Source of the DNA: Microthyrium microscopicum | Lineage: Eukaryota | NCBI GenBank assembly: GCA_010405405.1 | Contig: MU004233.1 | Coordinates: forward strand, 189,067-253,066 | Reading direction: 5' to 3' | DNA length: 64,000 nt | In this document: one piece after another, positions 27,513-32,742 of the stretch | How the letters are laid out: each line of letters begins with the position of its first letter | Position numbering within the stretch: the first letter of the stretch is position 1 | Notes under the pieces: model-generated | The model's database searches: none | The model's input: only the letters and a program-made list of their open reading frames with translations | Told to the model about the DNA's origin: nothing | Program-made: the position numbers and the translations under genes

Positions 27513-28457
27513 TCACCCTCCAGGCGTATGAACAACCAAATCCGCCTTCCTCTCCTCATTCCCCAACGCCGCATCCCACGCGCTCTTAACCTCCGCCCAG
27601 TATTCGTCCGGGTACATCCTCATATGCCCCACATGCGCACTCTTCTCAAAGATCTTCACCCTCGTATCATACCCCTTCTCCTGCGCGTGCTTCCCATTCG
27701 CAATGATATCCTCCCACCAAACAATCTCATCCTTCTTGCTCGCCATATACAGTCTTGTGGCATCCACATCACTCACACGCTTGTCCATCAGTAGCCGAGA
27801 GCTATGTTCAGGTATGCTGTAGCCCCATAGTCGCACGTTGATGAAATGAGAAACGCTTAACACACCTGCACATATCGTCTTGGTGAGCACGAATGGCAGC
27901 GGTAGAAAAGTGAGACCGAGAGCCATAGCGTGTCCCCAGCGCCAGATGTTGGCCTTGTATAAATGTCCGCCCGGCGTGCTATCGCATATGAGCAGTTTGT
28001 GTGGAAACACCGCCGACGTTGGCGTAGGAACGCCTTTCATGCCTTGAACAGCCCACGGTGCGCCGGCGACCCATTGGCGGTAGGTATTGAGCATGGCGAG
28101 CATATTGATACCGCCTGTATTTGAGAAACAGTGGATCAACACTTTCCCATCCTTCAAATCCTGGCCAGTGGTGCTGGAGAGAGCGGCGCGCAACGCAACG
28201 AGCATGGTGCGTGAACGTTGCGCGAAGGTGCTGAACATTGCTTTGCTTATTGGGCTGAGGACGATGACTACGCGCACGCCTGGATATAGCGATTGGTACT
28301 TGTCAGAGTACTTTGCTATGTGTTTTATGAGGCCATCGCCCCAGGTGAAGAGCATGACAGTAGTTGGGCCATTGTTGACTGGCGGTTTTGGCGCCGAAGG
28401 GGAGGGTTCGAGGAGGATGACCTGGTCGGATAGTCGCGTGAACTCGTAGGGAAGCAT
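27513..28457 (-). CDS. DUF829/TMEM53 (PaxU-like) alpha/beta-hydrolase-fold protein
   Basis: FTWGDG..KHIAKY, LIHCFSNTGG, ICDSTPG, LYMASKKDEIV, SAHVGHMR.YPDEYW. Confidence 0.85.
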   Translation of the reverse strand: MLPYEFTRLSDQVILLEPSPSAPKPPVNNGPTTVMLFTWGDGLIKHIAKYSDKYQSLYPGVRVVIVLSPISKAMFSTFAQRSRTMLVALRAALSSTTGQDLKDGKVLIHCFSNTGGINMLAMLNTYRQWVAGAPWAVQGMKGVPTPTSAVFPHKLLICDSTPGGHLYKANIWRWGHAMALGLTFLPLPFVLTKTICAGVLSVSHFINVRLWGYSIPEHSSRLLMDKRVSDVDATRLYMASKKDEIVWWEDIIANGKHAQEKGYDTRVKIFEKSAHVGHMRMYPDEYWAEVKSAWDAALGNEERKADLVVHTPGG

Positions 28458-29678
28458 CGAAAAGATTGTCAAGGGTAAGGGAGTGGTTGTTGAGTATCCA
28501 TATTGTAGGAACTGCGATGGTTGCGATGTTGGAAGATACAGGGTCTTTCACATGTTTGAGATTTAAGGGTGAAGTTGACAGTTGGGAGGTTGATTATTCA
28601 ACGAAAGAAGTGAGATTGGAGATGCCGAGGTTGATTTGGAAAAAGAAAAAGGGGCAGAGGAAAGATATCTTGATCTGATCTGATAGCAATCAACAATGAT
28701 AGACCAAAAGTCAATCTTTACGAGATATAGTTCTGTAGACTGTAGAGTACATTTCAAATACTAGTATTTGTATCCGGTCGTAATCATTGGGCAATATCCC
28801 CAAAAGTTCGAAGGATCAAAATCTTCATCCGAAGCATTCGACAAATCAGAAGCAGGGCGACCATGTTCTTCCAATCATAGCTGTGATATTTTCAGACCTT
28901 CTAAGTCTTGTACCAGTTACAGGTACTGTCTGATCTCGATCTGGTCAGCTCAGCTCTTGTTCCCCTTAGAGCTGCCAGGAAGCTATGAGATGCAGTTAGA
29001 CCTTGCGTGTACTATTCATTGAGCTAGCAGCCTAATTGGTTGTACACTCTATCAGATGACATCGGGATGCCGCAAAATTACATTAGACAGACGTCACAGC
29101 ACGACTCATGGATATACTTCTTGGGCATCAACAGTTGAGTAAAACACTTCAGGTCTAATGCTGAAATCTGGGATACCAGACACAATAGGAGCGTGTCGTT
29201 ATTTTGCGGTAGAGTGGAAGAGGTAACAGGTAGAACATTTGAATTTCTCGCTGATCTGGCTTGAAGGACCAGTAGACGGCCATTGGTATAATCAATCTGG
29301 TACAACCCAACTCATGATATCAGCGCAGTTCACCCGCCCAAGGAGGTCATTGTAAATCATGCACCTAGGAATGAAGGTTCCAAGCTTCCATCATATCGTG
29401 TTCCCTCCGCTGGCATTGCCTTTGTCATAAAACATGTTCAATCAGCTAGGCATGACGATGCGCCTAAGCAGAGACAACGTGACGCTGGTGTCCTGCATGT
29501 AATGCTGTCTTGGATACGCCACGAAGCGCCGACTTGAGTGCGCCAAAGCGAGCTGACGATGGCAGTTGGCGGGTCAAGGTCTTGCTGCGAGTAGACTCCG
29601 CGCCTGCGACCGTCTGCAGCTGCTCGTGAAACGCGACGGACTTCCCGCCGCGAGTTTCTAAACTGCTTCGTAAAGACT

Positions 29679-29710
29679 GCGGGTTCACAGCCCCCACCGC
29701 TGGAACCCGC
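29679..29710 (-). promoter_or_regulatory. Stem-loop 8 nt downstream of the p14 stop codon (candidate recoding signal)
   Basis: GCGGGTTCCAGC-GGTGGGG-GCTG(T)GAACCCGC: 12-bp stem with one bulge and a 7-nt loop. Confidence 0.55.
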
Positions 29711-29718
29711 GCCTCATG

Positions 29719-30329
29719 CTAATCGATACCGTGCTGCTGTTTGAGCGCTTCTAGGTTGGCCTTGCGCTCTTCCATATCTGCTTTCGACTTTGCCATCTTT
29801 TCTGGCTGGTGGTATAGAACTGGGGACGAATATTAGTGCTATCCTATATAGATCGGTGTGATAGGGTGTATCGTACCGACGAGGTAACGGTTCTGAAAGT
29901 TGAAACCGTTCAACTTGTCGCAGGCTTGCTTGGCGTCGGTTACTTCTTCATAGACGACGAATGCAGTGCCTTTGGTATCGTTGGAGATGCCCTGTCGAAT
30001 TTGACTATGTTTTCTGTCAGTCCATGCCTCCCGGGTATTCCGTTATAGATTCGACATACCGAATGGGCCCAAACTTTCCGAAGAGCTCGAACAGATCGCC
30101 TGCAGAGGAGTTGTAACTGTCCAGTGTCAGTCATACATTATACTAAATCGCCCAGCCCAGTATTCCATCTTGGAGAGACTTGGATCGCGTAGTCGTACCC
30201 TAGGTTCTTTACGAATAGGATTCTGTGAGATATCAGGTCAGCGCTCTGTGATAAAGTGGTCGCGTGTCCGCGGAATAGCATTGCCACTTACCGGTTGACT
30301 TCCGGGGCTAGTTTGCCAGCTCGACTCAT
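29719..30329 (-). CDS. SF3B6: Pre-mRNA branch-site protein p14 (SF3b subunit 6)
   Basis: Five exons spliced by hand: [115 protein letters not shown]. Confidence 0.95.
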
Positions 30330-30796
30330 ATCCGGGTTATAGTGAAGAGTATAGTTGGAAGGTTCAAGTAGTTGGTATGCGCAGTGGGGTGGATGATGTT
30401 GAAAGGGTGGGGTGAGGCTCTAGATAGAGGGTGGGAAAGATTAATATGTGGTGCAATTGGAGTCGAAGGTTCCGAGCAGAAGCGGAGCCTGCCCAGCAAG
30501 GAAGACAGCTGACTAACCGCCTGATGCCCAGTACACGTGCCCTACCACACTTGACCCTTCTGAGCTAGTGTGTTCGTCGTGTGCACTTGCCTCAGTTGAC
30601 TCTAGCTCGCTCCTAGTGTGCGTGTCCCCTGCAACTCCCTTTGGATATCAATTGAAATGACGACAACCTTTGTGTTCATATGTGATCTCCAACTCAACAC
30701 TCATACAACTATCAATAAAATAAGCCTTCGGATACACGGCAACACCTATTCCGAATCCAAGATCACCCCTACTTTAAACCTGACACGACCATCATC

Positions 30797-31189
30797 ATGT
30801 CTCGGCGGGTAGGACAATCACATTCACCATCAAATGCACCGGAGATATTCGCTGCTAACGTGAATGCTTACAGATCAAGTACAAGGTCACAGGCTCTGTC
30901 CAAGGGGTAAACTTTCGGTAGGTTCTTATGGCTCGGAATTCGTGACTGGCTTCTCAATTGACATTCAAGATACTACACTGCGCGAGAAGCAAACAAGATT
31001 GGCGTCACCGGTTTCGTTCAAAACGACGACGATGGTTCCGTCTCTGGTGAAGCTCAAGGCGATGACCAAGCTCTGAAGCAATTCCTTGAGATCGTCAAGA
31101 AGGGTCCGCCAGCAGCTGACGTATCGGACGTGACCAAGTCTGATATCGACTCGAAGGAGGGCGAGAGCAAGTTCAATCAAACTCGATAG
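30797..31189 (+). CDS. Acylphosphatase
   Basis: [49 protein letters not shown]...KGPPAA; two introns. Confidence 0.92.
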
Positions 31190-31214: not shown

Positions 31215-32742
31215 TCAATCTAGGTCTTTTGTTCGTGACTTGCGTTTTCTCGTTGATCGTCGCAAAACTGGTGCTGGTTCTGGTTCTGCCTCCTCCTCAG
31301 GCTCAGGCTCAGGCTCTTCTGGTTCTGCCTCTTCCTCAAGCTCTAGATCCTCAGGCTCTAGATCCTCAGGCTCAGCTTCTTCTGGCTCTGGATCTTCTGG
31401 ATCTTCTGGATCTTCTGGATCTTCTGGATCTTCTGGATCTTCTGGATCTGGCTCTTGTGGTTCTGGATTTCCTGGTTCTGGTTCTTCTGCCTCTTCCAAC
31501 TGAGCTCCTTCTTGTGACTCCGCCTCTGCTTCGGCTTGTGCCTCAGGCTCAACCTCCAATTCTTGTCCATGGTCTGGAGCCGACTGCAGAATAGGTTCCT
31601 GGTTTACATGAATCTCAGGCTCAGGCTCAGGTCCAGGTTCAGAATCATCAGAGTCAATCTCAACCACTTGCTCTCCATCATCTTCCTCCTCATCTTCCTC
31701 GAGTTCCGACGCTCCATCCTCAACCAACAATTTCTCTCTTTCAATGAAATTGGGCTGTCCATCTTCATCATCCTCTTCCGATACCTCCCACAAAACCTGG
31801 CCCTCCACCAGTACTTCCTCCCCGTTCTCTTCTTGATCACTATCCATCTCGTCGGGAAACTCAATCGAACCTGGCAGAATCTCCATCTTCCTCTCTTGCA
31901 TCGCAATCAAGTCCTTCAGAAACGCGCCTCTCTCCATCTTTCCTCCCACCTTCTTAGCTTTAACCACCAGCTCCTCACCTAGCAGTCGTGCGCGAGTACA
32001 CGACACAAGATCCCAATTGTGAAACGCGCTCAGTCCGCCGCCCTCGGCATTCGCGTTCCTGCGCTTGATGAATAGCATATCGGTGCCGATGGTGTTGCCC
32101 CATTTGCAAGTATACCAGTGGTCGTTGAGGGCAAACATGGGGTTTTGCGTATGAAGACCGGCAACGTGGAACTTTGAGATGAATTCTGGTTCCGGAGGCT
32201 GCTTATTTGTGCTGTCATCTTCATGATCTGAGGCTTCGGGTGCGACGGCATCATCATCATCATCTTCGATTTCTTCCTCGCCACCTTCTTCATCCTCAAG
32301 CTCATCGTCCTCGTTTTCATTTTCATCGTCTTCGTCGTCGGCATCTTCATCATCGTAATCTTCAACCTCTTCATCATCGCCGTCTTCTTCGTCATCGGAG
32401 CCAGACGCGTCTGCATTCAAGTCGGCGTCAGCTTGAGTTTTGCGCCGCTTTCGTCTCTTTTTAGGTTCTTGGTCGTCCTTTTTGCGCTTTCTTGAATATC
32501 TATTTTGATTCCCTATCTGAGAATTAGATCCTTGTCAAAGAACCTATGCAAGTTGAGACTTTGACTAACACTGCGGTGGGAGGTCTACCACGAGGTAGAA
32601 ATCCTGTTGGCTGTTAGTGAGACGGCTATTCAAGTGGGGCGCGCGCATCCACCTCTGTCTCATTTTCATCATATTCATATTCCCATTCAGATTCGGACTC
32701 TGGGATAGTTTGACTGCTACTATTATTACTCGGAGATGACAT
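31215..32742 (-). CDS. TFIIIC triple-barrel domain subunit (Tfc7/sfc7-like) with acidic low-complexity regions
   Basis: N-terminal EWEYEYDENETE|DFYLVVDL and GLHTQNPMFALNDHWYTCKWGNTIGTDMLF; at least two 5' introns; C-terminal basic NLS-like RRSTRKRK. Confidence 0.75.
31380..31450 (-). repeat. 9-bp coding tandem repeat (GGATCTTCT)n encoding (DPE)n
   Basis: About six consecutive copies seen directly. Confidence 0.9.

Follow-up and report, generated by a model that had tools for sequence, protein, structure and literature searches.

We analysed a 64,000-nucleotide stretch of the Microthyrium microscopicum genome (contig MU004233.1, positions 189,067 to 253,066; hereafter the window), in which the minus strand carries a five-exon gene for the spliceosomal protein p14/SF3B6 and, directly behind its UAG stop codon, a predicted hairpin and an open reading frame (ORF) that continues the p14 frame for 84 codons. 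A first-pass annotation, made from the letters alone, had proposed that this stop codon is recoded to yield a C-terminally extended p14. The layout it described was found in place, from the ...QQHGID-TAG terminus through the 8-nt spacer to a 12-bp, one-bulge stem at 29710-29679, and the 84-codon in-frame extension is open over 29718-29467. The gene, its stop codon and the extension lie as follows, in coordinates of the window:

30329-29719, minus strand: p14/SF3B6 gene, five exons, spliced coding sequence of 115 aa plus TAG
30329-30292, 30222-30199, 30116-30060, 30004-29877 and 29819-29719, minus strand: p14 exons, from the translation and the RNA contig of run X5
30291-30223, 30198-30117, 30059-30005 and 29876-29820, minus strand: p14 introns, read from GT..AG and branch-site signals
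29721-29719, minus strand: p14 stop TAG, preceded by GAT and followed by C (29718); the coding sequence ends ...QQHGID
29718-29467, minus strand: in-frame extension ORF, 84 codons, no ATG, closing at TAG 29466-29464

The peptide of exon 4 matches the Pfam family RRM_1, and its best matches in the PDB are p14/SF3B6 chains (E 1.5e-12 to 2.5e-11). SF3B6/p14 was taken to be a small protein of about 115-125 aa; with a single RRM, p14 as its closest solved relatives and a length of 115 aa, the predicted product identifies the five-exon gene as p14/SF3B6. Its introns measure 55-82 nt, carry G at +5 in four of four cases and contain the branch sites GCTGAC, ACTGAC, ACTGAC and CACTAAT. Run X5 contains a contig of 3638 nt that matches the window letter for letter and from which all four p14 introns are precisely removed; although none of the sequencing runs with this sequence is registered as RNA, X5 is therefore cDNA, and the gene model is confirmed. 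The same contig runs without a break from the downstream DUF829 gene through a 1.2-kb spacer into spliced p14 and further upstream (28800-29819, extending past both of these positions). This means transcription of the spacer or an overlap between neighbouring transcripts, and for that reason the contig does not fix the 3' end of p14.

The sequence directly behind the stop is predicted to fold into a stable stem-loop with the following parts:

29718-29711, minus strand: spacer CATGAGGC, 8 nt, directly after the p14 stop
29715-29673, minus strand: predicted stem-loop as a whole (RNAfold)
29710-29699 and 29691-29679, minus strand: arms of the GC-rich hairpin core, 12 bp (8 + 4 bp), with a 7-nt loop at 29698-29692 and a bulged U at 29687
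29715-29711 and 29677-29673, minus strand: five weaker outer pairs (RNAfold), reaching to 3 nt after the stop

RNAfold assigns this hairpin -27.4 kcal/mol, against -16.6 +/- 2.8 in 200 dinucleotide shuffles, none of which is as stable (z -3.88); its arms include an 8-nt perfect complement, 16 nt apart, and the helix is retained when folded in a 171-nt context. Rfam returned no matches at E<=1 over 28500-31000. In the part available to us, a 2026 review tabulates structures that start at +12 for Moloney murine leukaemia virus (MoMLV), Venezuelan equine encephalitis virus (VEEV) and Colorado tick fever virus (CTFV), with spacers of at least 8 nt typical, and lists leaky contexts that include UAG-CARYYA, UGA-CUA(G) and UGA-CGG. 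A stable structure with its core at +12, 8 nt past the stop, matches this spacing criterion for readthrough stimulators, and the stop context, GAU UAG CAU GAG, agrees with the tabulated leaky motifs only at +4 C and +5 A. An out-of-frame ATG overlaps the p14 stop (TAGCATG) and opens a 10-codon ORF, MRRGFQRWGL, that ends at a TGA (29717-29685, minus strand). A second hairpin is predicted in the 171-nt fold at 29651-29633 on the minus strand (outer pairs about 29663-29622), with a 7-bp GC stem and the loop GAAGU; it coincides with the codons of a peptide block, R-G-G-K-S-V-A-F, that is described below.

The extension was also described at first pass as visibly richer in GC than its flank, and this is borne out: GC is 0.57-0.65 over 29450-29750 and 0.35-0.48 in the spacer at 28550-29450. 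Under a codon-usage model trained on the window's 26 ORFs of at least 200 aa, the extension frame has a log-likelihood of +6.6 bits and is the only positive one of the six frames, the other five scoring from -7 to -34; for comparison, real 84-codon coding chunks score 15.7 +/- 10.3, and the maximum among 61 windows of the downstream spacer is -2.1. A second minus-strand frame stays open for 91 codons (29438-29713), with a codon score of -7.3 bits; the relatives described below match the other frame, and this second frame looks like a by-product of composition. A plus-strand gene over the extension region was considered and rejected, as every plus-strand frame there contains two to four stops.

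The extension peptide has relatives, namely nine small proteins in six clusters at 90% identity, all from JGI/IMG contigs and all without a name or labelled 'hypothetical protein'. A word-indexed search yielded P0001 (74 aa, E 8.7e-18). When 1.84 billion cluster representatives of any length were searched with a profile, four proteins reached E<=0.001, comprising the family members P0002, P0003 and P0005 (72-78 aa) and a 1684-aa repeat protein, P0004, that proved to be an unrelated, spurious match. A profile search of the 90% clusters gave six proteins, the new ones being P0006 and P0007, and a cluster look-up supplied P0008, P0009 and P0010. The contigs that encode these proteins measure 0.93-1.36 kb in five clusters and 28.7 kb in the sixth. 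In a nine-row alignment (A3; the window and eight relatives), 14 columns are invariant and are confined to two blocks. Block 1 reads S-x-x-R-(G/R)-K-S-V-(S/A/T)-F with acidic residues after it, and block 2 reads R-F-G-A-L-K-S-A-L-R; in the window they are represented by:

29643-29629, minus strand: KSVAF, inside block 1; K26, S27, V28 and F30 invariant
29550-29521, minus strand: RFGALKSALR, block 2; G59, L61, K62, S63, A64 and L65 invariant; the sole predicted helix

The linker between the blocks is variable in sequence and spans 22, 27, 28 or 31 residues, and the two blocks share one frame in all seven non-redundant sequences. Because the window ORF has no ATG and gene calling began at a V (non-ATG) codon in eight of the nine relatives, the ORF cannot be an ordinary separate gene. 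We also considered whether the 'VR' starts of the relatives correspond to the 'AR' codons just past the stop, and rejected this in favour of a better, ungapped fit to V8-G-A-V-N-P-Q of the window.

Searches beyond this family gave little. Pfam returned nothing above its cut-offs for the extension and six relatives (best E 0.047), ESM Atlas gave no usable match to the extension, and a PDB profile search with the extension had a best E of 0.27 (the SPT3 N-terminus), which is not significant. No longer or fused annotated protein with the peptide was found in the all-lengths representative search except the spurious P0004, nor was a fused protein found among 8000 scored candidates, which is weak evidence. 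In a scan of metagenome DNA for related loci, 158 stretches matched the pattern and none was confirmed, and a degenerate pattern for block 2 had no matches in metagenome DNA. Since the peptide has relatives that display motif conservation, length variation in frame and a fitting codon usage, the extension is beyond chance, and we judge with some confidence that what stands behind the p14 stop is conserved coding sequence.

A family member ties this peptide to the 3' end of p14. Residues 2-18 of P0007, the most distant branch of the family, are identical at 12 of 17 positions to the +1 frame of the window read across the p14 stop (VSINMRRGPQGWGLLVR). Because this match spans the stop, the P0007 contig carries p14 C-terminal codons together with the post-stop sequence, which here links the extension family to the p14 3' end at the level of sequence. 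Compared with P0006 and the window, P0007 carries a single additional base after the V-G codons and before the Lys-rich stretch, and its frame lacks the TGA that closes the MRRGFQRWGL ORF in the window and is there fused to the conserved ORF.

In three related fungi, contigs (RNA-like in runs X7 and X10, DNA in X6) align with the window over the last ~46 nt of the p14 coding sequence and the stop position. The alignments end 9-12 nt past the stop (at 29710 for X6, 29710 for X7 and 29707 for X10), beyond which likeness falls below 80%. Read by eye rather than computed, the 30-nt loose ends of these three fungi are open in the p14 frame. The loose end of relative F holds, also by eye and not computed, a possible 8-bp stem, GCGGCCCG/CGGGCCGC, at the same +12 position, the inner four pairs of which differ on both sides from the GCGGGTTC/GAACCCGC of the window, and relatives D and C have weaker hairpins, again seen by eye, a few nucleotides further on. 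We treat these stems as a lead rather than a test.

Several observations weigh against bypass of the p14 stop into a conserved tail. The open frame by itself is unremarkable, as 663 of 5000 dinucleotide shuffles (13%) stay open. Aligned mismatches in the family are conservative, which favours coding sequence, with a mean BLOSUM62 score of -0.34 against -0.99 +/- 0.05 in shuffled alignments and none of 5000 shuffles reaching -0.34; this comparison, however, is inflated by the aligner and by pairs that are not independent. The protein database also brings an ascertainment bias, showing only relatives whose ORF is open enough to be called. The hexamer CAUGAG (+4 to +9) matches no proven leaky motif (CARYYA, CUAG/CUA or CGG). 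For relatives D and F the mRNA contigs break off some 140-147 nt past the stop, short of an 84-codon extension, although the end of a contig is not a poly(A) site. P0007 is a counter-case, its conserved ORF being joined to the frame that reads +1 across the p14 stop region, with Asn in place of the +1-frame Ser (AGC) of the window, which implies a stop other than TAG; because the Asn codon puts A at the middle-to-last base of the stop, it would read TAA if the first base is kept. Plain readthrough or single-site editing would, in the P0007 lineage, miss the conserved peptide. Behind the frame difference may lie a genuine frameshift or loss, or else a mistake in that one contig. As to frame conservation among relatives, to which the first-pass annotation had looked, the two blocks share one frame in seven of seven sequences, and the P0007 ORF is out of frame with p14.

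The tail itself is predicted to be largely disordered. AlphaFold2 on the nine-row alignment gave a mean predicted local distance difference test score of 56, a low-confidence model that is irregular except for a helix at 56-66 (block 2), and we consider the extension as predicted disordered apart from this one helix. The docking motif of protein phosphatase 1 (PP1) known as RVxF can be written [RK]x(0,1)[VI]{P}[FW]. KSVAF, which had been singled out at first pass as fitting this consensus, does match it as a regular expression, and the match recurs as KSV[SAT]F at the aligned site in nine of nine sequences; the chance rate of the pattern is 941 of 20000 shuffled peptides (4.7%, for a single sequence). 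The family form K-S-V-(S/A/T)-F resembles the KTVTW of PNUTS. The G-A/V-L-K of block 2 only approximates a SILK motif, and it lies on the wrong side of RVxF. In the excerpts available to us, PP1 regulators are described as having disordered regions with RVxF as the primary docking motif, to which extra short linear motifs or short helices add affinity. The invariance of KSVxF throughout the family strengthens the idea of PP1 docking, and recruitment of PP1 by the tail is plausible and attractive.

Within SF3B1, p14 binds to the phosphorylated N-terminal region. The published accounts, as far as they were accessible, have SF3B1 dephosphorylated by PP1 late in splicing, with NIPP1 as the adaptor in animals; because p14 sits on SF3B1 and SF3B1 is dephosphorylated by PP1, a long p14 isoform could bring PP1 to SF3b. 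NIPP1 (PPP1R8) likewise uses an RVxF motif within a disordered region to bring PP1 to SF3b, as we propose for the tail, and its peptide ...KNSRVTFSEDDE resembles ...RSRKSVTFAEDIE and ...SRGKSVSFHEE of the family, including the acidic tail. The two are nevertheless not homologous, the extension having no FHA domain, no Pfam match and no significant PDB match (best E 0.27), and the tether here would be a covalent fusion to p14.

From these sequence features we consider that a rare, longer p14 with the conserved tail is probably made. In the route that we hold, tentatively, to be the single most likely one, structure-assisted readthrough, most ribosomes would stop at the UAG and release the normal 115-aa p14, and a minority would bypass it, a near-cognate tRNA decoding the UAG with the aid of the +4 C and of the hairpin, whose GC-rich core lies at +12. 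The bypass product would be p14 with a disordered tail of 84 residues that displays two short linear motifs, an RVxF-type K-S-V-x-F preceded by basic and followed by acidic residues, and the short helix RFGALKSALR. These motifs may dock PP1, in which case the long isoform would bring the phosphatase to SF3b. The programmed readthrough suggested at first pass stands in its layout, which matches that of MoMLV, VEEV and CTFV, and in the coding-type conservation of the peptide, and falls short in the leaky context; P0007, for its part, is out of frame and has a stop other than TAG.

Two alternatives dispense with bypass of the stop altogether. The extension might never be translated, being instead a GC-rich, structured 3' untranslated region (UTR) of p14, or part of a long transcript reaching to the DUF829 gene, that is conserved as RNA or DNA. 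The database 'proteins' would then be gene-caller artefacts on homologous UTRs; all are short automatic ORFs, and five of the six clusters sit on contigs of ~1 kb, the sixth on one of 28.7 kb. A second frame is open as well, openness alone having a p of about 0.13, conservation of the nucleotides beside the stop extends to two frames simultaneously, which points to constraint on the RNA, two hairpins are predicted, and no annotated longer protein with the peptide came out of the all-lengths representative search or the 8000 scored candidates. Conservation, however, falls in two peptide blocks that stay in frame across a variable linker of 22-31 residues, replacements are conservative, codon usage is positive in the extension frame only, and Rfam is without a match (28500-31000); we regard this reading as unlikely. 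Independent translation, either initiated at a non-AUG codon or on a shorter transcript with its 5' end inside the p14 gene, would account for the P0007 ORF, which is out of frame with p14 and has in-frame ATGs overlapping the p14 end, and could draw on the spacer transcription seen in X5. It is improbable given that the window ORF has no ATG at all, that the V starts of eight of nine relatives follow a gene-caller convention, and that reinitiation after a 115-codon ORF is inefficient in eukaryotes.

The remaining alternatives would produce the same tail by changing the mRNA. Besides readthrough, fungi also use alternative splicing to generate C-terminal isoforms, and a minor isoform could excise an in-frame intron that holds both the stop and the hairpin. 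Among the 72 combinations of GT..AG pairs that skip the stop and land in the conserved frame, one has a plausible length:

29729-29658, minus strand: candidate 72-nt in-frame intron GTATCG...TTTAG, joining ...KQQH to ETRGGKSVAF

Its length is within the 55-82 nt range of the gene, both conserved blocks lie downstream of its acceptor, and the extra base of P0007 would be intronic and hence harmless. Its donor, though, has C at +5 and G at +6, where four of four confirmed introns have G at +5, and, in contrast to the four real introns, it lacks a CTRAC-type branch site. Through 28800-29819, X5 is collinear and shows no such joint, bearing in mind that contigs drop rare forms; ahead of the acceptor, the stretch V-x-x-V-G/N-P-Q-S-S-x-S-S-L is conserved no less well than the remainder, and P0006 has an 8-codon insertion, in frame, upstream of the acceptor. 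We therefore think alternative splicing distinctly unlikely. A 53-nt intron ending CCCGCAG (29679) was also tried and rejected, as it breaks the frame and would lead into the second open frame, with its negative codon score. The other route is A-to-I editing of the stop, UAG to UGG, in sexual tissue, with the extension made only then. The published parts accessible to us describe stop-loss editing for hundreds of genes in Fusarium and Neurospora, with C-terminal extensions common in Sordariomycetes (PMC11156358) and Dbf2 as a case (PMC13123824). The first-pass suggestion of an editing site holds for the triplet, the UAG having U at -1 (GAU UAG), which is the preferred one, and is not borne out by the predicted structure: fungal editing prefers adenosines in hairpin loops, as far as the accessible text of PMC11156358 goes, and the minimum-free-energy and centroid folds of 171 nt both place the A at 29720, unpaired, in the gap that separates two helices and not in a hairpin loop. 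In the same accessible text, genome-wide editing was found in neither Aspergillus nidulans nor Botrytis cinerea; the P0007 lineage has no TAG, and X5 shows no other letter at the stop, a single contig hiding minor variants. Editing is accordingly improbable as the source of the tail.

Among viruses, insects and mammals, conserved stop bypass associated with RNA structure is well documented; from fungi we know of it only for a few metabolic enzymes. Readthrough of the p14 stop would share with the UAG and pseudoknot of MoMLV gag-pol, and with the extended stem-loops of alphaviruses and coltiviruses, an 8-nt spacer, a structure at +12 and a start-less in-frame ORF. It would differ from these viral cases in that the gene is a cellular fungal one, the structure is a simple hairpin of 12-17 bp and CAUGAG is not a tabulated motif. 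Peroxisomal targeting signal type 1 (PTS1) follows a tripeptide rule, and the p14 tail, 84 aa long with two internal motifs, ends in ...HVVSA, which is not a PTS1 tripeptide. Peroxisomal dual-targeted enzyme isoforms, which arise in fungi and animals by readthrough or alternative splicing, are likewise cases of fungal cellular genes gaining a C-terminal motif by stop bypass, to judge from the accessible part of PMC4207609, and differ, as its title indicates, in using a short UGA context where p14 has UAG and a hairpin. The Sordariomycete stop-loss editing described in the accessible parts of PMC11156358 and PMC13123824 likewise involves UAG with U at -1 and an extension within the 3' UTR, and differs in that the A at the p14 stop is predicted to lie outside a hairpin loop and that one relative has no TAG. 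Set beside these systems, the p14 extension would be a cellular stop-bypass extension with an unusual host protein and an unusual cargo motif. The first-pass annotation knew of no description of such an isoform, and we likewise found no Pfam family or annotated longer protein; among the papers listed by our literature searches, supplements of fungal editing papers apart, none on stop bypass in p14/SF3B6 turned up, and those listed as naming both SF3B6 and readthrough are unrelated by title.

Stop bypass in a core subunit of the spliceosome would be new and would add a hidden isoform to SF3b; if true, it would offer a concrete, testable way into the question of how PP1 gets to SF3B1 in a fungal cell. 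In its fullest form, which we consider a long shot, an ascomycete clade would have recoded the p14 stop to obtain a minor isoform with a built-in PP1-docking tail that tethers PP1 to SF3b beside phosphorylated SF3B1, a fungal and translationally dosed counterpart of the animal NIPP1-PP1 route. More generally, start-less ORFs on short metagenome or metatranscriptome contigs could expose recoded extensions that eukaryotic annotation misses.

Some contigs of runs X7 and X6, although labelled as other organisms, are 100% identical to the window, at two- to threefold depth and in one case spliced; they fall at 29436-29637, 29877-30110 and 29889-30423. These look like read carry-over between libraries rather than conservation. 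The neighbours of p14 are, downstream on the minus strand, an apparently intronless gene for a DUF829 (TMEM53-like) protein of 314 aa (27516-28457), a sequence that places the organism in Ascomycota and is found unchanged in NCBI-derived collections, and, upstream, an acylphosphatase exon on the plus strand (30962-31189, E 9.4e-18) and a minus-strand gene (31218-32534) for a TFIIIC subunit-6 domain protein with long acidic and PED/EPE repeats, the opposite strand of which reads as Ser/Gly repeats.

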